From: a virus
Strand: one strand, 5' to 3'
Length of the DNA: 64,000 nucleotides
Virus record (IMG/VR): IMGVR_UViG_3300016472_001104
Location: 28,042-92,041 of that record
A program made the translations under genes and the position numbers. Positions within the stretch are counted from its first letter, which is position 1, and each line of letters opens with the position of its first letter. This document shows, piece by piece, positions 27,258 to 44,132 of this stretch. A model generated the notes under the pieces. That model worked only from the letters and a program-made list of their open reading frames with translations, did no database searches and was not told the origin of the DNA.

Positions 27258-28199
27258 ATGTATATAGCACCTAAAAAGCTGAAAAGAGGTTCAAGGGTTG
27301 CAATCATAGCCCCAGCATCTCCAGTGCACACCGATAGATTGATGGAAGGTCTGGACATCATTAAAGAGGTTGGGTTGATACCGGTTCTTGGTCCTTGTGT
27401 AAAAAACCTAAGAAACGATGGATGTTCTTCTGCTCCTTTGAAGGAAAGAGTTGAAGAGTTTAATTGGGCTTTTCGTAGCCCAGAAATTGCTGGTGTGATT
27501 TGTGCTTTAGGTGGTGAAGGTTCAGCTGCATTACTTCCTCATATTGATTATGATGTTATAAGATCTAGTCGCAAACCATTTCTTGGTAGATCTGATATAA
27601 CTGCGTTGAATACCGGAATTCTAAAACACTCCGGTTTGATAACGATAAACGGTCAGACACCAAGCATTCATGTTGACAGAGGTAAAAAGGTGTTGTCTCT
27701 GGAATCAGAATCTTTTTTAAGAACGTTATTGTTGATGATGTCAAATGAGCAGTGGGGATCTAAGCCTTTTGAAAACAATCTTAATATTCCACAAACTGTT
27801 TCTCCAGGCAACGCCAGTGGTATTGCTTTAGGAGGAAACCTAGATACATTTACCAGATTATTTGGTACCCAATACATGCCGAATGTTGATGATTGCATTC
27901 TTTTCATAGAAGACGTTCATAAATCTGGCGTTGTTTTGGACAGAGAGTTTCTTCAGCTTGAGCTCGTTGGTGTCTTACAAAGTGCTGCAGGGTTTGTCAT
28001 TGGTGAGTTTATAGACTCAAAAGACAATAATCTTTTTAACGTTGAATCTGCCGTTGAAAGATATTTCCTTGAAGGAAAACCGTGTATGTATAACATGCCA
28101 TTTTCTCACGGACCCGTTGTTGCTCCAATTCCAATTGGAGCGATGTGTCACATTGACGCAAGTTCTTGCAGCGTTTCTTTTGATTTTGCGATGTCTTGA
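27258..28199 (+). CDS. LD-carboxypeptidase / MccF family serine peptidase (S66)
   Basis: VAIIAPAS, GRSDITAL (Ser), GGNL, LFIEDV (Glu), FSHG (His). Confidence 0.88.
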   Translation: MYIAPKKLKRGSRVAIIAPASPVHTDRLMEGLDIIKEVGLIPVLGPCVKNLRNDGCSSAPLKERVEEFNWAFRSPEIAGVICALGGEGSAALLPHIDYDVIRSSRKPFLGRSDITALNTGILKHSGLITINGQTPSIHVDRGKKVLSLESESFLRTLLLMMSNEQWGSKPFENNLNIPQTVSPGNASGIALGGNLDTFTRLFGTQYMPNVDDCILFIEDVHKSGVVLDREFLQLELVGVLQSAAGFVIGEFIDSKDNNLFNVESAVERYFLEGKPCMYNMPFSHGPVVAPIPIGAMCHIDASSCSVSFDFAMS

Positions 28200-36727: not shown

Positions 36728-37732
36728 ATGGCTAAAGGATTAGACGTAGGTACATCATTCATTGTCCTCGCAGAAGAGGGCTCAAAAGGTAAGGTCACAT
36801 ACAAGGACTTCAGGGACGCGTTCTACGTCATCAAACCCACGACTCCCATTGCGACGAAGATGATCGAGAAGGGTTTGGCCGGTAAAACATTCGTCAAGGA
36901 TGCCGATGGTTCTTTCATCATCTTAGGAAAGGACGCCATTGAAAAGGCGGTTGAACGTAATGACTCTGCAAAACGTCCCATGTATAAGGGTGTCGTATCA
37001 TCAAAAGAAAAAGATGCAAGGCGAATTCTGACATACATCCTCAAAGAGGTCGCAGGATCTCCCTCAGAACAAGGAGAGAAACTCGTCTTCTGCGTCCCGG
37101 CACAGCCTGTCGATCAAGAAGATGAGGACTTCGATGTCGGTTACCATGAGGACGTCATCGTCAAACTTCTCACCGAGGTCGGTTATTCAGCTCGTGCTAT
37201 CAACGAGGCCGAGGCTCTCTGTTATTCTGAGTTGGAGAAGGATGACTATACTGGTATCGCGCTGTCGTGGGGCGCAGGTATGGTCAACGTCTGCGTTATG
37301 TTGAACGGTGAGCCAGTCGTCACATTTTCTACGACAAAGTCTGGTGATTGGGTGGATCGCATGGCCGCTGTTGCAACAGGAGAAGCCGACTCAATTGTCC
37401 AGGCTGAAAAGGAACAAGGAGACTTTACGGTTGGTCAACCGAACGAAAACCAGGTCCTTGCCGCCGTGGCGTCCTACTATGATCGTCTCATAGATTATAC
37501 TACGAAGCAGCTCGCTTCATCAATGGACGGTCACAAATCCCTTCCAAAATTTAAGGATCCACTACCTGTGGTCGTGGCCGGCGGCACCTCAAAGGCAAAA
37601 GGATTCGTCGATCTGTTTGCTAAGAAATTGGATGAAAACGGGTTCCCTCTTCCTGTCAAAGAAGTCCGCCATGCAGCTGATCCTCTTCACGCGGTTGCTC
37701 GTGGATGTTTGATCGCAGCACAAATAATGTGA
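36728..37732 (+). CDS. Actin-fold ATPase (MreB/ParM/MamK-like)
   Basis: Phosphate-1 GLDVGTS, VFCVPA, connect-1 INEAEA, phosphate-2 SWGAGMVN, adenosine VVAGGTS, connect-2 AVARG; AGGAG RBS. Confidence 0.82.
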   Translation: MAKGLDVGTSFIVLAEEGSKGKVTYKDFRDAFYVIKPTTPIATKMIEKGLAGKTFVKDADGSFIILGKDAIEKAVERNDSAKRPMYKGVVSSKEKDARRILTYILKEVAGSPSEQGEKLVFCVPAQPVDQEDEDFDVGYHEDVIVKLLTEVGYSARAINEAEALCYSELEKDDYTGIALSWGAGMVNVCVMLNGEPVVTFSTTKSGDWVDRMAAVATGEADSIVQAEKEQGDFTVGQPNENQVLAAVASYYDRLIDYTTKQLASSMDGHKSLPKFKDPLPVVVAGGTSKAKGFVDLFAKKLDENGFPLPVKEVRHAADPLHAVARGCLIAAQIM

Positions 37733-37752
37733 TTCTATATTGAATTGAACAT

Positions 37753-37784
37753 GAAAGGCTCCTTCACGGGGCCTTTTCGTTTTT
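37753..37784 (+). terminator. Rho-independent terminator after actin-like gene
   Basis: GAAAGGCTCC-TTCAC-GGGGCCTTTTC followed by a T tract. Confidence 0.75.
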
Positions 37785-37839
37785 AAACTTTTGTTGTGCA
37801 AACCTGTTTGCCTGTAGATTACAATGCAAATAGGCAAAG

Positions 37840-37938
37840 ATGAGCGTAAAAGTTCCTTCACGATTTGTAGGGCTCCATTGTCACACAGGACGTTTGACAA
37901 GTATTTGTGTAAATTATTTGATTTGTTTTTTTGTGTAG
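37840..37938 (+). other. Mini-ORF A: upstream copy of DnaE N-terminus (PHP motif I)
   Basis: My translation: MSVKVPSRFVGLHCHTGRLTSICVNYLICFFV*; FVGLHxHTG matches PHP motif I and the second copy at 38911; below the ORF-track size cut-off. Confidence 0.7.
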
Positions 37939-37962
37939 TATAACCACAATGTGTATGTTGCC

Positions 37963-37978
37963 CCTACTTAATAGTAGG
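37963..37978 (+). promoter_or_regulatory. RBS-sequestering hairpin upstream of endonuclease gene
   Basis: CCTACT-TAAT-AGTAGG stem covers the AGG of the AGGTG RBS; overlaps a CTACTTA variant of the ATANTTA motif. Confidence 0.55.
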
Positions 37979-37984
37979 TGAACT

Positions 37985-38908
37985 ATGTTGATAAAAACAA
38001 TATGTGAAGTATGTAATACAGAATTTGAATTCAAAAAACAAAAGCCGTCGAAACCACCCAAAAGAGCCTGTTCTAAAGAGTGCTCTTATAAATTGAGAAT
38101 AAAAGTTAGATCAACTGTACACGATCCAATCGATAAGACGTGTGTGGATTGTGAGAAAACTTTTCAAGACACCACCAAAAAGAAACAGTCTGTTAGGTGC
38201 AATGATTGCATAAATTCCAACATGGTAAAAACCAGACATTTAAGAGGAAATTATGCAAGAACACCTGAACAAAATGCAAAAACAACCGCTTCTTTACTTA
38301 AGAAATATGAATTAGGTTGGGAACCCAATACACCTGAATCAAGATTAGAAACTTCTCTTAGGAACAAAAGACTTTGGTCTGATCCCGATTGGATAGAAAA
38401 AGTACGTAAAACATGTAGGAGTAAACGTGGCGTTGATCACTGGACACAGACTCCTGAGGCTCGTCTTTTCATTTCAAATATGAAAAAAGGTAAAAAATTA
38501 AGTGAAAAGGCGAAACAGAGAATGAGTGAGTCCGCGTCAAACAGGGTTAGAAACAAAAGAGAAAGCTTATACACGTCTGCAATTGGTGGAACCAGAGAAG
38601 ACTTGAAGGGCTACTTCAGGAGTAACTGGGAAGCAAATTTTGCCAGGGTGTTAAATTACCAAAATAAATCTTGGGAATATGAACCTTCTTCCTTCACGTT
38701 ATCTAATGGGAGGACATATACACCTGACTTCTTAAGTGAGAATGTTTACTATGAAATCAAGGGAAGGTTCACCGATGCCTGTAGAGAAAAGTTAGAACTT
38801 TTTAGGAGCGAATATCCAGACATTCAACTAGTATTGATAGACGGTGTAAAGTACGACGAGTTAAGATTACAGTATAAGAGTCTGATCCCTACTTGGGAAG
38901 GAAAATAA
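37985..38908 (+). CDS. Free-standing homing-endonuclease-like protein (Zn fingers + PD-(D/E)XK-like domain)
   Basis: CEVC...CSKEC, CVDC...CNDC, NUMOD3-like KGKKLSEKAKQRMS, C-terminal FRSNWEANF...YEP...YTPDF...YEIKG. Confidence 0.75.
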   Translation: MLIKTICEVCNTEFEFKKQKPSKPPKRACSKECSYKLRIKVRSTVHDPIDKTCVDCEKTFQDTTKKKQSVRCNDCINSNMVKTRHLRGNYARTPEQNAKTTASLLKKYELGWEPNTPESRLETSLRNKRLWSDPDWIEKVRKTCRSKRGVDHWTQTPEARLFISNMKKGKKLSEKAKQRMSESASNRVRNKRESLYTSAIGGTREDLKGYFRSNWEANFARVLNYQNKSWEYEPSSFTLSNGRTYTPDFLSENVYYEIKGRFTDACREKLELFRSEYPDIQLVLIDGVKYDELRLQYKSLIPTWEGK

Positions 38909-38910
38909 AC

Positions 38911-38991
38911 ATGAGCAATGGAGATAATATGCGCCCGGTGAGAGTGCCGAACCACTTTGTCGGTCTGCACGCCCACACCGGGCGCTCGTAG
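38911..38991 (+). other. Mini-ORF B: N-terminus of DnaE (PHP motif I), out of frame with the gene body
   Basis: My translation: MSNGDNMRPVRVPNHFVGLHAHTGRS*; AAGGA RBS; the body (AFDGMG...) resumes in the +1 frame. Confidence 0.75.
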
Positions 38992-38992
38992 C

Positions 38993-41959
38993 TTGGCTTT
39001 CGATGGAATGGGCGGTCCGAATCAACACATTGATTTTGTCATGAAGAACGGCATGGACGCCTGGTCTCTTACAGATCACGGTCATATGAACGGATTTGCA
39101 GAGGCATATCTGTATGCTGAGAAACTGAAAAAGTCGGGAAAGAAATTTAAGTTGATCCCTGGATGTGAAATGTACGTGCATCCCAGTCTTGATCAATGGC
39201 GTCGTGATAAGCTTCAAGCAGAAGAGCTTGCTAAGGATGCCAAGGCAGCCAAGATCGCTGCAAAGAAGGAAAAGGAAAAGATCAAAACAGAAATTGAAAG
39301 GAAGGGTGACGAGGACGATGAAACCGTAGCGATTGAGACAAGCAATGCCTTAACCATCGAGAACGAGGACGAAACAAAGTCTGGCAAGTCATTCAATCCA
39401 GTAAATCGACGGCATCACCTCGTTGTCCTTCCGAAGACATCAGGTGCCCTCTTAAAAATCTTTCGATTAGTTTCCAGGGGTTACCTCGAAGGATTTTATC
39501 GATTTCCCAGGATCGATCTCGAGATGCTTCGCGAGGTTGCCAAGGATGACGATATCATCATCTCATCTGCGTGCCTCGGTGGAATTTATTCTCACGAGGT
39601 CTTTTCTCAACTACGTCAGGTATCTTTTGACAAGATGGACGCGAGTCTTTTAGACGATCCTCGGTTAATGGATACAATCGTTAATGCTATCGGCAACTCA
39701 TTTGATCAATACTCAGATGCTGTCGGCCGCCATAACATGATGTTGGAGCTTCAGTTCAATAGGCTTCCTGCACAGGACGTTGTCAATCGTGCAATCATTG
39801 AATTTGCACGGCGAAATTCATTGACGGACCAACTAGTGGTCACCGCAGATTCACATTATGCAAACCCGGATCTGTGGTATCACCGTGAGATGTATAAGAA
39901 GCTTGGGTATCTAAACTTTAGCGAATATGGTCCAGATTCTCTTCCAAAATCAAAGGATGACGTCAAGGCTGAATTGTATCCCAAGAATGCAGAACAGGTC
40001 TGGGACGAATTTCAAGATGCAAAGAAACGTCAACCCTTTTATGGTGATTGTGAAGACTTGATTTTCAATGCAATCGAGAGGACACACGATATCGCACACC
40101 AAGTGATTGGTGATATTAGTTTGGATACCAATTATCGATATCCAAAAAACGTTGTTCCTAAAGGAAAGACTCCGTTTCAACGCCTATTAGAACTGTGTAA
40201 GGCGGGAATGGTTAAGCGTGGTCTTTCTGAAAATGATGAATACGTTTCTCGTCTTCGTCACGAGCTTGAGGTCATCAAGAAGCTCGACAACTCTGCGTAC
40301 TTTGTGACCCTGGCAAGAGCGTTAGAGCTAGCACGTGATGTGTGTCTTCTCGGTGTTGCCCGTGGATCTTCAGGTGGTTCACTTGTTGCTTACGTCCTGG
40401 ACATCACCGACCTGGATCCAATCAAATACGAGTGTCGCTTCGATCGTTTTATGAACGTGTACAGGCACGGGGCCCCCGATATAGACTGTGACGTCGGAGA
40501 TCGCGACAAGGTCCTTGATGTTCTACGCAAAGAGTTTGGATTCAACAACGTTGTTCCAATCTCCAATATGAATACCTTCAAGGTAAAGACGCTCGTGAAG
40601 GACATCTCAAAATTCTATGGAATTCCCTTTGAAGAGGTCAACAACGCAACAAAGACCGTGGAACAAGACGTCAGAAAAGCGACGATGAAGCATGGAGACG
40701 ATAAGAACCTCTTTGTCCTTACGTTTGATGATGCGTTGAAGTACTCTCCATCGTTTAAGGAATTCATTGATAAACATCCACAGGTTGCAGAGTCTATCAA
40801 CGTCTTGTTCAAGGAACAACGTTCCCTGGGGCGCCATGCAGGAGGAGTAGTAATTCTTGACGATGCTCCGAATCAGATGCCTCTCATCACAAACTCTGGT
40901 GATCCTCAGACACCATGGGTAGAGGGTGTCGGTCAGAAAACACTCGAGCCGCTCGGGTACATAAAATATGACATTTTGGGTCTTGAAACTATGCGTCTCA
41001 TTGGCAGAACGATAGAACTTATTCTTAAGAGAAAGGAAGGACTGAATGATCCGACTTTTTCAGACGTAAGGGAATGGTATGAGAAACATCTGCACCCAGA
41101 TGTAAATGATTATAACGATCAAAGGGTTTATGAATACGTTTATCACGATGGAAGATTTGCTGGTGTCTTTCAATTAACTTCAACAGGCGCACAAAAGTTG
41201 TTTAGGTCTGCTAAGCCTAGATCAATTGTTGACATTGCAGTGTTGACTTCGATCTATCGCCCGGGACCACTTGCCGCGAACGTTGATAAACTTTATCTCA
41301 AGGCCAGGAAAGGCGAGAAGTATGAATGGGGTCATCCCCTCTTTGAAAAGGTGTTGGGTCCCACAAATAATCTTCTCATATTTCAAGAAAGTGTGATGGA
41401 TCTAGCAGAACACGTTGGCGGATTTCCAAAGGATCAATGTGATAATGTCCGCCGCGCAATCATGAAGCGAGATCTTTCCAAAGGTGATGCAGCAAAGGCA
41501 GAAGCAAAACGACTTGAGGATGACTTTGTTAATGGTGCAGTAAAAAATGGTGTAGAGGAAGAGACCGCAAGAAAAGCATACCAGAATATCCTCTGGTTCG
41601 CAGGCTATGGTTTTAATAAAAGTTTGTACTTCCGGCAAACTATAGACATAGTTAGATCTGGAGAAAAGATCACGTGTCAGATCAACGAAGTGAAACCAGG
41701 AGATCTGGTGATGAGCAAGGACCAAACAACAGGGAAACAGACCCAAGTTTCCGTAAAGAAGCTGATCAACAATGGAAAAAAGCCACTCGTCAAGGTGACC
41801 TTGAAAGATGGTCGGACAGTGATCAGCAGTATGAATCACAGATTCAGGACGACAACGGGTCATGTTCTTTCTTTGGCGGAGATCATTCGGAAAGGTCTTT
41901 CCATCGAGACGTCAGACCAAATCCGGGATACTACTGTAACAGGTGTAAAAAGTGTATAA
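38993..41959 (+). CDS. dnaE: DNA polymerase III alpha subunit, N-terminal part, fused to split-intein N half
   Basis: LTDHG, PGCEMY, SACLGG, TADSHY, ARGSSGGSLVAY, PDIDCD, GRHAGG, KYDILGL, YRPGP, GYGFNK then intein; the track's 38957 start gives a non-homologous N-terminus, so the true start is uncertain. Confidence 0.9.
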   Translation: MAFDGMGGPNQHIDFVMKNGMDAWSLTDHGHMNGFAEAYLYAEKLKKSGKKFKLIPGCEMYVHPSLDQWRRDKLQAEELAKDAKAAKIAAKKEKEKIKTEIERKGDEDDETVAIETSNALTIENEDETKSGKSFNPVNRRHHLVVLPKTSGALLKIFRLVSRGYLEGFYRFPRIDLEMLREVAKDDDIIISSACLGGIYSHEVFSQLRQVSFDKMDASLLDDPRLMDTIVNAIGNSFDQYSDAVGRHNMMLELQFNRLPAQDVVNRAIIEFARRNSLTDQLVVTADSHYANPDLWYHREMYKKLGYLNFSEYGPDSLPKSKDDVKAELYPKNAEQVWDEFQDAKKRQPFYGDCEDLIFNAIERTHDIAHQVIGDISLDTNYRYPKNVVPKGKTPFQRLLELCKAGMVKRGLSENDEYVSRLRHELEVIKKLDNSAYFVTLARALELARDVCLLGVARGSSGGSLVAYVLDITDLDPIKYECRFDRFMNVYRHGAPDIDCDVGDRDKVLDVLRKEFGFNNVVPISNMNTFKVKTLVKDISKFYGIPFEEVNNATKTVEQDVRKATMKHGDDKNLFVLTFDDALKYSPSFKEFIDKHPQVAESINVLFKEQRSLGRHAGGVVILDDAPNQMPLITNSGDPQTPWVEGVGQKTLEPLGYIKYDILGLETMRLIGRTIELILKRKEGLNDPTFSDVREWYEKHLHPDVNDYNDQRVYEYVYHDGRFAGVFQLTSTGAQKLFRSAKPRSIVDIAVLTSIYRPGPLAANVDKLYLKARKGEKYEWGHPLFEKVLGPTNNLLIFQESVMDLAEHVGGFPKDQCDNVRRAIMKRDLSKGDAAKAEAKRLEDDFVNGAVKNGVEEETARKAYQNILWFAGYGFNKSLYFRQTIDIVRSGEKITCQINEVKPGDLVMSKDQTTGKQTQVSVKKLINNGKKPLVKVTLKDGRTVISSMNHRFRTTTGHVLSLAEIIRKGLSIETSDQIRDTTVTGVKSV
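41621..41956 (+). mobile_element. Split intein, N-terminal half (112 aa)
   Basis: After GFNK: SLYFRQTI...INEVKPGDLVMS...NGKKPLVKVTLKDGRTVISSMNHRF (blocks A and B) then stop. Confidence 0.85.
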
Positions 41960-42915
41960 AGTCTGCTGGTTATACAACTGAATACACCCATGAACAACAC
42001 ATTATAGATTGTTGGCCAGGAGGTGTAGAGGGAGTTGACTACGTGGAGTGTAGGCTGTGTAAGTTTGCGGCGTTAAAGATCACGCAACATGTGAGGACCA
42101 AGCATAACATCACAAAAGAAGAGTATGAAACTAATCATGGACCAGTCAAGTGCATTTCAACCGTGGAGGCTTATTCAAAGGTCAATAAATACAACGGAGA
42201 TTGGATCAATAGAAAGAAAGAACAAGGGATCGATCTGACTGATTATGCGAAGAAGATGGGTGTGGCTGTGAGTCGTTCAATCATGAGTAATCCAGACGAA
42301 CGCGCAAGAAGGGCAGCCAATATGATCTCCATGAACAAGACAGATGAAGCGAGACAAAAATCTTCAATCACTGCTAAAATAACGTCAGCTAGACCTGAGA
42401 TTATTGAAAAAAGAACGATGGTACTTAGAAAATGGAGAAATGAAAATTGGGAAACATTCTATGAAAAATGTATCAAAAAACTTAGTTTTTCTGAGTATAG
42501 AATGTCAAATCCTGAAATTTGTCTTAGAAACGTCCTTTCTCAGGTTGATGGATATAATTTTACATGGTCACAGTTGGTAAAAAGTGACACATTTGACAAC
42601 AAATCCAAAAGAAAACAAGTTGATTTTGGAGATAAGAAATTACGAGTCTATGTAGAGTTTGATGGTATTCATCATTTTAAATGTTTTAAAGTTCGTGAAG
42701 ACTTTGAAAAGGGTAGAAGAAATGACATCGCACTTGATGAACACGTAGAAAAACATGGTTGGACGTTGATCAGGATTTCATATGATCAGTATGATCCAAA
42801 ATGTGAATTATCATTTAAAAAAACATGTCTTCAACGTCTCCATCATATTCTACAAAATCCGACTCCCGGTGTCCATCGTATCGGTGATGCATATAATCAA
42901 GAGAAGCAAACATGA
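41674..42915 (+). CDS. Homing-endonuclease-like protein (C2H2 finger + Vsr/DUF559-like domain) between the intein halves; start uncertain
   Basis: YVECRLC...HVRTKH, SNPE, QVDF...VEFDGIHHF...GWTLIRISY; alternative GTG start at about 42043 with GGAG upstream. Confidence 0.75.
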   Translation: MSDQRSETRRSGDEQGPNNRETDPSFRKEADQQWKKATRQGDLERWSDSDQQYESQIQDDNGSCSFFGGDHSERSFHRDVRPNPGYYCNRCKKCIKSAGYTTEYTHEQHIIDCWPGGVEGVDYVECRLCKFAALKITQHVRTKHNITKEEYETNHGPVKCISTVEAYSKVNKYNGDWINRKKEQGIDLTDYAKKMGVAVSRSIMSNPDERARRAANMISMNKTDEARQKSSITAKITSARPEIIEKRTMVLRKWRNENWETFYEKCIKKLSFSEYRMSNPEICLRNVLSQVDGYNFTWSQLVKSDTFDNKSKRKQVDFGDKKLRVYVEFDGIHHFKCFKVREDFEKGRRNDIALDEHVEKHGWTLIRISYDQYDPKCELSFKKTCLQRLHHILQNPTPGVHRIGDAYNQEKQT

Positions 42916-43196
42916 GCGTTAATTTTATTGAGCGTGGTGAAGAGTTGATCGCATCGACGACGATGGATAGAGAGCGGATCGTCGATGCGATGCTCGATTG
43001 TTACCTTTCAGGAGAGGTAGATTACTCTCTACATCCAGACCGGTGGGTGAGAGACCTAAAAAAAATTGATCTTTCGGGGGATGAATCCACAAACATTGCC
43101 ACCGTGGAATACTTTGGCGATGAAGATACGTACGACCTTGAGGTGGAACATCCGGATCACCAGTTCTACCTTCCTAATGGGATTCTGACATCAAAT
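42912..43196 (+). mobile_element. Split intein, C-terminal half (95 aa)
   Basis: Blocks F and G ending TSN before Ser+1 of SHAIAY. Confidence 0.85.
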
Positions 43197-44132
43197 TCCC
43201 ATGCAATCGCATATGCGATTGATTCATATATGTGTGCATGGTTATTGACACATTATGAAGAGGAGTGGCTGTGCGCATATCTTGAGACAATGTCAAACAA
43301 TCCTGACGATAAAGCAAAGGCTTTCGGCGAGATCAAGGGAATGGGTTACCAGATCGTTCCAATCGACATAAATTATGCCACAAAGACATGGACAATCATT
43401 CCTGGAAAGAAATTTATGCCAAGCCTGTTGACGTGTAAGGGTCTTGGTGATGCAGCCATTGATGAAATCATGGAAAATAGGCCATATAAATCGATGGAAG
43501 AATTTTTGTGGAATTCTGATGGGTCATGGCGTCACTCCAAATTCAACAAGAAGGCCCTGGAGTCACTCATCAAGATTGAGGCATTTGATTCAATGGAAGT
43601 TGTCGGACCTGGTCGGTTGTTTGAAAATTATGGACAGATGCATTTTGTTCTCGTTGAAAGCAATGATCTAATCAAAAAATCGACAAAGAAGGAACCCACT
43701 CTGGGACAGAAAAACTTTCAGGAGTTAACTGAAAGATCGCGTGATATGCAACCATGGTCACGACAGGAACGAGTGCAAAATTTTGTTGAATACCTTGGAT
43801 CTGTTGATGTGACGATGATCGTAGAACCAGACGTCATGAAAAAGTTAGTTGACAAGGGTGTTAGGTCAATCGATACGCTTGAAAATGGTGAGAAGGACAT
43901 CAGTTGGTTCTGTGTCCAAGAAACGACAGCAAAGAGAACGAAGGCAGGAAAATCTTACCTACTCATTGGGGCATTAGGGATGGACGGAAAGACACATCGA
44001 CTCAGCGTATGGGGATGGAAGGATGATTCAAAAAAGATTTCACCATATTCTTTGTGCCTTGCAGAGATCGAAAAGAATGACTTTGGTTGCTCTACAACGT
44101 CATGGAAACTAAAAACGATTGGTGATGAATAA
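42912..44132 (+). CDS. dnaE: Split-intein C half fused to DnaE C-terminal part
   Basis: TYDLEVEHPDHQFYLPNGILTSN then SHAIAY, PIDINY, KGLG (HhH), NKKALESLIKIEAFDS and an OB-fold-like end; ATGA-coupled to the endonuclease. Confidence 0.9.
   Translation: MSVNFIERGEELIASTTMDRERIVDAMLDCYLSGEVDYSLHPDRWVRDLKKIDLSGDESTNIATVEYFGDEDTYDLEVEHPDHQFYLPNGILTSNSHAIAYAIDSYMCAWLLTHYEEEWLCAYLETMSNNPDDKAKAFGEIKGMGYQIVPIDINYATKTWTIIPGKKFMPSLLTCKGLGDAAIDEIMENRPYKSMEEFLWNSDGSWRHSKFNKKALESLIKIEAFDSMEVVGPGRLFENYGQMHFVLVESNDLIKKSTKKEPTLGQKNFQELTERSRDMQPWSRQERVQNFVEYLGSVDVTMIVEPDVMKKLVDKGVRSIDTLENGEKDISWFCVQETTAKRTKAGKSYLLIGALGMDGKTHRLSVWGWKDDSKKISPYSLCLAEIEKNDFGCSTTSWKLKTIGDE

Follow-up and report, generated by a model that had tools for sequence, protein, structure and literature searches.

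A stretch of 64,000 nucleotides (nt) from an uncultured large phage (IMG/VR record IMGVR_UViG_3300016472_001104, positions 28,042 to 92,041; hereafter the window) carries a polymerase gene, dnaE, whose 5′ end is interrupted by a homing endonuclease gene. From comparative sequence analysis, nucleotides 37894 to 38995 of the window are probably a homing cassette inserted in motif I of the PHP domain of dnaE, with the ribosome making a short programmed hop over a stop-led gap at the end of the cassette. The analyzed record is a 92-kb fragment with an estimated completeness of 26%.

We imagine that a free-standing cassette was inserted between codons 6 and 7 of the motif (HxH-T-G-R|S-A-F-D-G), consisting of a leader, a gene for a PD-(D/E)xK nuclease, a substitute dnaE start with a six-residue extension, and a 7-nt insert that begins with a stop codon. 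The polymerase would be made from the substitute start: 26 codons would be read, and the ribosome would then come to TAG while its P site holds peptidyl-tRNA(Ser) paired with UCG. A 55-nt hairpin, refolding behind the ribosome, would pull its 3′ arm out and so aid a 7-nt slide, and decoding would resume at GCU (Ala). The product would read ...HAHTGRS-AFDGMGG..., with the hop junction peptide SAFDGMGGPNQHIDFVMK following ...HTGR. The insert would also split the presumed recognition site of the nuclease and so shield the genome in which it sits, much as the 50-nt gap works for T4 MobA. We infer the hop itself, and likewise the cleavage site and the immunity.

Results

The dnaE start is present twice, around a homing endonuclease gene

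All the features described here lie on the plus strand. Copy A (37840 to 37893; MSVKVPSRFVGLHCHTGR) comprises the native first 18 codons of dnaE, now a stump; its open reading frame (ORF) continues through unrelated residues as far as a stop at 37938, for a total of 32 amino acids. The left end of the cassette, an AT-rich 91-nt leader (37894 to 37984), precedes the gene for the 307-residue endonuclease (37985 to 38908). Copy B, the cassette-borne replacement start, occupies 38911 to 38988 and has 26 codons, MSNGDN followed by the core MRPVRVPNHFVGLHAHTGRS (38929 to 38988). Its likely start is the ATG at 38911, three bases past the stop codon of the nuclease ORF and with an AAGGA Shine-Dalgarno sequence 9 nt upstream, giving the full peptide MSNGDNMRPVRVPNHFVGLHAHTGRS. 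Next comes the 7-nt coding gap TAGCTTG (38989 to 38995), made up of an in-frame TAG (38989 to 38991), a C, and the TTG at 38993 to 38995 that we propose as the landing codon. The nuclease gene ends 81 nt (38909 to 38989) before the gap, and the two form one unit.

The polymerase ORF resumes in the +1 frame, four bases beyond the TAG, from 38996 (AFDGMGGPNQHIDF...). It extends from 38996 to 41959 in a frame that differs from those of both copies. The dnaE body proper, recognized by the Pfam PHP, DNA_pol3_alpha, and finger domains, runs from codon 8 of the PHP motif (AFDGMGG...) at 38996 to an intein junction (…GYGFNK) at 41620.

Of the 16 codons that can be aligned, 12 encode the same residue in copies A and B, 10 of these 12 by different triplets; at the DNA level, 29 of 48 bases agree. 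This bears out an earlier sequence-only reading of the window, which had described two dnaE N termini, similar as protein and diverged at synonymous sites, on either side of an endonuclease gene. It was also right that both copies carry the HxH motif and that both lie out of frame with the polymerase body. A search of all six frames of the 64-kb window for the motif F[VI]G[LM]HxH[ST]G gives two matches only, one in each copy. The same reading had both copies break at one residue. The breaks do nearly coincide, but copy A ends after codon 6 of the HxH motif and copy B after codon 7. This one-codon offset, which the earlier reading had itself noticed, recurs in relatives, in which the stump ends at codon 6 (codon 5 in locus L014) and the cassette copy at codon 7.

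Since the record is a metagenome assembly, the arrangement might be a chimera of nuclease-plus and nuclease-minus variants, or an indel might have produced the 7-nt frame break. We give this next to no weight. The body ORF read from 38957 across the 7-nt gap is matched letter for letter in a separate 8.4-kb Logan contig, and an exact protein look-up found the 983-residue polymerase form and the endonuclease in four contigs each, from JGI, Logan, and ENA. The two variants share no long k-mer at 37893/37894, and the same architecture, with different sequences, is seen in 24 other contigs. Mis-assembly of the locus is thus unlikely, because identical gap-spanning frames are found in contigs from three sources and because the architecture recurs widely.

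Copy A is native and copy B came with the cassette

Six related dnaE loci were fetched (loci are given L numbers here), the closest of which, L001, encodes a DnaE that is 83% identical. Its dnaE start is uninterrupted (MSTKIPSRFVGLHCHSGRSAFDGMG). Copy A matches this start at 15 of 18 residues and 37 of 54 bases; the similarity stops exactly at 37893, and the window rejoins L001 at the Ala codon at 38996. From this comparison we take copy A to be the phage's own dnaE start and 37894 to 38995 to be inserted sequence, which separates codon 6 (Arg) of PHP motif I from the region of codons 7/8. A TTG is present at both edges of the insertion, at 37894 to 37896 (CGT|TTGACA...) and at 38993 to 38995 (...TAGC TTG|GCT); this may be microhomology left from the origin of the stump form, or chance.

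Copy B is of a different type. Cassette-borne starts share an N-terminal extension, M-S-x-G-G-x-x-N-P-V-R-V-P..., that native starts do not have. Copy B has such an extension, of six residues, and is homologous to the dnaE starts that accompany this endonuclease family in other phages; copy A lacks the extension and has no strong hairpin (minimum free energy [MFE], -18.5). The comparisons show that copy A is native and copy B foreign in origin. The earlier proposal, in which the endonuclease gene entered dnaE at its 5′ end and brought along a recoded replacement for that end, is supported by the L001 match and the cassette type of copy B, and also by the greater conservation of the cassette relative to its flanks, described below.

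Copy A has the native sequence, the promoter side, and a start, and one might therefore read it as a true first exon, with 37894 to 38995 a self-splicing intron and copy B an intron-borne relic. The U before 37894 and the G before 38996 match what is expected of group I splice sites. The spliced product, however, would read ...HCHTGR-AFDG..., one residue short of the canonical motif, with the conserved Ser deleted. No group I or group II match was found with Rfam, at E values up to 10, over 37600 to 43300 (three chance hits only). Moreover, copy B is conserved as protein, and at least 10 related lineages have the interrupted copy B without copy A. An intron is thus very improbable.

A stop-led gap follows Ser codon 7 in all interrupted loci

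A scan of viral contigs with the nuclease profile gave 246 loci, of which 80 were fetched; a further census added 80 more dnaE loci, which are counted into the totals for gaps. We found 25 interrupted loci, with 14 versions of the gap. With the gap taken to begin at the stop and to end just before codon 8, its length is 5 nt (L009 to L012), 6 nt (L155 and L160), 7 nt (the window), 9, 10, 11, or 16 nt. All three frames are represented, and the stop, which may be TAA, TAG, or TGA, comes directly after Ser codon 7 in 25 of 25 loci. We considered a variant genetic code and rejected it, given that all three stop codons serve in this position.

In every version, deletion of the gap restores exactly the spacing H-x-H-x-x-x-S-x-(F/Y/M)-D-G found in 81 intact relatives; for the window, removal of the 7 nt yields HAHTGRS-AFDG. 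Against the Pfam PHP profile, the hop product (7 nt skipped) does best, at 47.9 bits; the product of a +1 shift scores 41.3, and the body without copy B scores 36.1. Directly before the point of resumption, nine versions have a Ser codon (TCT, TCA, or TCG) that is identical to the take-off codon or wobble compatible with it, as in L155 (TCG/TCG) and L133 (TCT/TCT). In four versions it is ACN and shares its last two bases with the take-off codon (TCG/ACG twice, TCC/ACC, and TCT/ACT). In the window, take-off UCG and landing UUG are mismatched at the middle base.

At most loci the body frame has no ATG, GTG, or TTG upstream of the gap or for 14 to 30 codons past it. These start-less codons encode the conserved FDGLGYPxxHIDF, and within the L022 group their differences are only synonymous. 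With no start codon near the gap and with the codons beyond it conserved, we conclude that translation enters from the cassette-borne start. No tRNA genes were found in the window; hence, there is no sign of a suppressor or a special tRNA(Ser) encoded by the phage. Folding of the RNA around the gap and 3′ of it scores no better than that of shuffled sequences (z, -0.75), and the gap, 7 nt here and 5 to 16 nt in relatives, holds neither an internal take-off stem-loop nor a Shine-Dalgarno-like element before the landing site.

A conserved hairpin ends at the take-off codon

In 20 of 20 interrupted loci tested, the 87 nt ending at the Ser codon fold as one long hairpin of about 60 nt, the 3′ arm of which ends at the Ser take-off codon or two bases into it. 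The mean MFE is -31.7 kcal/mol, versus -13.3 for 67 distinct intact dnaE starts, which include nuclease-adjacent ones and from which the hairpin is absent. The hairpin of the window (38931 to 38985; MFE, -32.7 kcal/mol) spans 55 nt, has GC stems of 10 bp (38931 to 38940 and 38976 to 38985), and ends one base before the take-off codon TCG at 38986 to 38988. It is in the same register as the hairpins of 10 relatives. Across the ungapped alignment of these 11 sequences, 88.7% of cells are paired, versus 32 to 52% with slid partners; seven pairs change on both sides, and none of 500 shuffles reaches the covariation score. In one such case, the change from F6 to R6 in the window (TTC to CGC) is compensated by GCG in the 5′ arm, where other cassettes pair TTC with GAA; the CGC Arg of copy B is the residue of the native gene in the same clade. 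These folds and alignments together demonstrate a conserved, predicted hairpin.

Because several of the conserved pairs are G-U, the structure is presumably one of the sense-strand RNA; for the same reason, we judged a role of the inverted repeat as a DNA cruciform unlikely. The GC content of third codon positions is 85% in copy B and 44% in the body, and the conserved RNA hairpin largely accounts for the high value. Recoding of copy B had earlier been suggested to make it immune to cleavage. The recoding is real, but its GC-rich character is largely explained by the hairpin rather than by immunity alone, and protection more probably comes from the stop-led 7-nt insert. At L022 to L028 and L036, the sole ATG of the copy B start is inside the hairpin loop (…D-M-L-R-P…), and the 5′ arm is upstream of this ATG, after AGGAGG. 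In those loci the 5′ arm may be untranslated leader, while in the window it is coding.

Ways across the gap

How, then, do ribosomes reach the polymerase body? One answer is that they do not and that the gene is split or crippled: copy B would be a free 26-residue peptide, acting as a noncovalent first strand of the barrel or dispensable, and the body would restart at TTG 38993, TTG 38957, or ATG 39008. The TTG of the window is exactly before codon 8, and the stop and the TTG are within 4 nt, much like a coupled restart. Homing nucleases have split genes elsewhere, as with nrdA of phage Aeh1 and genes 39/60 of T4. We nevertheless consider this arrangement unlikely. In most relatives, the junction and its vicinity lack ATG, GTG, and TTG, yet the downstream codons are conserved; in every lineage, the HxH strand of copy B remains conserved as protein; a restart offers no obvious role for a hairpin that ends at the Ser codon; and a free 26-residue strand with two metal ligands would be an unlikely subunit. 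The alternative offered in the earlier reading, with the two peptides as interchangeable first strands of the PHP barrel, is not supported: copy A is missing from many loci, and most lack a start codon from which a separate body could be made.

Alternatively, a cassette of the same origin might have its gap crossed by conventional recoding, with a +1 frameshift at UCG-UAG-C in the window and a -1/+2 shift or stop read-through in relatives, leaving two to five extra residues in the loop of the PHP motif. The net shift in the window is indeed +1, the +1 product still matches the PHP profile as scored above, stop codons are shift-prone sites, and the UUG landing codon pairs poorly with tRNA(Ser). 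This explanation would, however, need three mechanisms in devices that are clearly homologous and whose gaps of 5 to 16 nt fall in all frames. The site has no slippery sequence, and in every version the motif spacing of the 81 intact relatives comes back when the gap is removed exactly, not when the frame is shifted. Conventional recoding seems to us improbable to much the same degree as a split gene.

The hop that we favor has its own difficulties, and several points weigh against it. In the window, the mismatch of UUG with UCG leads one to expect weak re-pairing, and ribosomes could instead restart at this UUG. T4 bypass owes its efficiency to a take-off stem-loop and an internal Shine-Dalgarno sequence, neither of which would fit in so short a gap, and the short hops that have been measured in E. 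coli are inefficient. The TCN that precedes resumption may also be taken for the Ser codon that the recipient gene already had and is therefore no independent proof of re-pairing. Finally, the hairpin could have some other role, such as control of dnaE translation.

The nuclease belongs to the T7 endonuclease I type

The 307-residue nuclease has a Cys-rich, NUMOD-like N-terminal part and a PD-(D/E)xK domain of the T7 endonuclease I type. As a single sequence it scores 25.7 bits against Pfam PF05367, below the cut-off of 29.1. A profile of 26 family sequences, however, matches PDB entries 1m0d (E value, 8.9e-10), 1fzr, and 2pfj, with E values ranging from 9e-10 to 2e-8, and D248, E257, and K259 are invariant across the 26 homologues. 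The profile match and the D...E-x-K residues together place it as a predicted member of the T7 endonuclease I family (PF05367). In all, 96 homologues of the nuclease were found.

About 70 nt of the leader align with the leaders of related endonuclease genes in L009 to L012. A 6-bp hairpin, CCTACT/AGTAGG (37963 to 37978), overlaps the AGGTGA ribosome-binding site of the nuclease gene; it is not significant on its own (z, -0.91). Comparable hairpins that limit translation are known at phage homing nuclease genes (PMC2677866). The first 20 to 25 nt of the cassette share the motif TAAAAAC-TAGT(A/G)TGTG... in L020, L022 to L025, L027, L035, L014, and L037, and the same motif is found 60 to 70 nt upstream of the nuclease start in stump-less loci (the L009 to L012 leaders). 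It may be the promoter of the nuclease gene. In most stump forms, this motif at the cassette edge opens with an in-frame TAA that closes copy A.

The cassette recurs and has moved

Full-length homologues of the nuclease sit immediately upstream of the dnaE start in every full-length locus fetched (L009 to L037). Distant relatives that share only the C-terminal domain (L038 to L088) were in no case beside dnaE. The former fall into three arrangements. In the first, the nuclease gene precedes an intact dnaE (L015, L017, L018, L021, L033, and L034); in the second, a single dnaE start is cut by a stop after Ser 7 (L009 to L013, L016, L019, L026, L029, L030, and L031). The third, with a native-type stump upstream of the nuclease and an interrupted copy downstream, is found in the window and in L014, L020, L022 to L025, L027, and L037. 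Copy A is absent from L009 to L013, L016, L019, L026, L030, and L031.

The cassettes of L022 and L023 are 94 to 97% identical, while their dnaE bodies are 67 to 85% identical and their upstream flanks cannot be aligned. The conserved segment in the L022 group, for which two contigs were compared, runs from just past the stump to about 100 nt beyond the gap. This contrast between cassette and flanks implies recent movement between diverged genomes, with a short co-conversion tract. As read from these loci, the anatomy, recurrence, and mobility of the cassette are well demonstrated. We imagine that the copy A stump, itself nonfunctional, serves as a left homology arm, with the body as the right arm; with arms on both sides of the cut, the cassette could home into any naive dnaE, whatever gene is upstream, in the manner of an intron or a fungal mobile ORF. 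Nothing ties copy A to the body, and its significance is probably evolutionary.

The gap can evidently outlive the nuclease. L155 and L160 have TCG-TAG-TCG, that is, identical take-off and landing codons and a 6-nt gap (L155:2180-2200, and the corresponding place in L160), together with the hairpin; a deaminase-like ORF is upstream, and no nuclease gene is nearby. These two loci look like a hit-and-run relic.

Other features of the fetched loci deserve mention. Ser 7 is AGC or AGT in four of the six nuclease-adjacent intact dnaE loci (the first arrangement above) and TCN in interrupted loci; the AGC/AGT codons may give target immunity via synonymous recoding. An unrelated HNH gene (endonuclease VII-like, DHDH...RGLLC) is directly upstream of an intact dnaE in L004 (3700 to 3940), L005/L006/L104, and L123 (about 200 nt upstream), and the 5′ end of the polymerase gene thus seems to be a hot spot for more than one family of homing nuclease. 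In L021 (3959 to 5158), the dnaE body has 12 stops in the first 400 codons of the expected frame, which suggests a further insertion or frame change.

Searches of a phage collection gave no match to the locus at the DNA level and only relatives of about 30% identity at the protein level. Single-protein scans for the nuclease, in viral contigs and in metagenome contigs, found nothing, and neither did an exact-pattern scan of metagenome contigs for the junction.

Flanking genes and a second interruption of dnaE

Upstream of copy A is a gene for an actin-like protein (36728 to 37732; Pfam Volactin), with a terminator-like hairpin at 37753 to 37777, 3′ of it. Downstream, dnaE is interrupted a second time, at 41621 to 43196, by the halves of a split intein and a Vsr/DUF559-like endonuclease gene. 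The N half (41621 to 41956) begins with Ser1 and has 112 residues; the C half (42912 to 43196) has 95 residues and ends ...TSN|SHAIAYA, the C-extein resuming with SHAIAYA at 43197. The endonuclease gene (41674 to 42915) separates the halves and overlaps each of them, in the "fractured gene" arrangement, which includes a Vsr-like nuclease (PMC2677866).

Discussion

The closest parallel to the cassette is MobA and gene 60 of phage T4, in which an insert-borne homologous region ("HomR") and a stop-led gap protect against self-cleavage and 50 nt are bypassed (Manning & Atkins, bioRxiv 10.1101/2022.08.31.505936, where the work of Bonocora et al. 2011 on T4 MobA is cited). In both systems, a nuclease gene is within an essential replication gene and carries its own divergent copy of the displaced coding stretch; the insert opens with an in-frame stop immediately past the take-off codon (TCG-TAG in the window) and disrupts the nuclease site, here a presumed one; and some lineages keep the gap after loss of the nuclease. 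Pairing of the mRNA behind the ribosome has been proposed as the forward driver of T4 bypass, and in both cases an upstream stem-loop and such pairing come under discussion as the driver.

The differences are considerable. The T4 nuclease is of the HNH type and its target is a topoisomerase gene; here, the nuclease is PD-(D/E)xK and the target the PHP motif of dnaE, so that the cassette would be an analogue of the T4 element and not a member of its family. The T4 gap is 50 nt long (20 nt in one clade), compared with 5 to 16 nt here, too few to hold a take-off stem-loop or an internal Shine-Dalgarno sequence; the conserved structure is instead a 5′ hairpin ending at the take-off codon. The take-off residue is Gly in T4 and Ser here, dnaE is not split into two proteins, and the bypass is one that we infer. 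A survey of gene 60 calls the T4 cassette unique (bioRxiv 10.1101/2022.08.31.505936). We lean, on balance, toward the view that the dnaE cassettes are a second, independently evolved bypass family, in which a stop-led gap of 5 to 16 nt would be hopped by peptidyl-tRNA(Ser), driven by a 5′ hairpin, as a device for nuclease self-immunity that is portable via its left homology arm. We found no paper describing a gap or a hop in phage dnaE.

Short, nonprogrammed tRNA hops in E. coli, as outlined in the introduction of the same study (bioRxiv 10.1101/2022.08.31.505936), are similar in that the peptidyl-tRNA leaves its codon by a slow or stop codon and re-pairs a few bases on, independent of frame; L155 has the exact TCG-TAG-TCG form. 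Such hops are synthetic or adventitious and inefficient, whereas here an essential gene has conserved the site along with a hairpin dedicated to it.

The duplicated gene end also has a precedent. In fungal mobile ORFs (mORFs) (atp6 of Allomyces macrogynus; atp6, atp9, cox2, and nad3 of Glomus; PMC3630166), an endonuclease ORF is between two copies of a gene end. The native copy, which is close to that of relatives, is orphaned, and the cassette copy, divergent as DNA and similar as protein, is the one expressed. There, the 3′ end is replaced, in frame and with no gap; here it is the 5′ end, with a stop-led gap and the body in the +1 frame. Free-standing homing nucleases are likewise found inside essential phage genes of DNA metabolism, such as MobE in nrdA of Aeromonas phage Aeh1 and the fractured genes with split inteins (PMC2677866). 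In those systems, function is restored by assembly of two proteins or by trans-splicing, while the 5′ dnaE cassette has neither an intein nor dimerizing tails.

T4 gene 60 is the one element from which programmed bypass is known in phages. An unrelated second cassette, if true, would make hopping a general way for homing nucleases to mask their own target inside invariant motifs. The natural variants, which differ in gap length, frame, stop, and landing codon and have in common a covarying 5′ hairpin, provide a ready mutant series for the study of mRNA refolding and forward sliding, and the stump-plus-replacement form in the window marks the insertion boundaries to the base. For annotation, the "frameshifted" or "truncated" dnaE genes of many uncultured phages are probably intact. 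One can envision the cassette as a route by which a free-standing nuclease gene may become a self-contained, intron-like mobile unit without a ribozyme or an intein.

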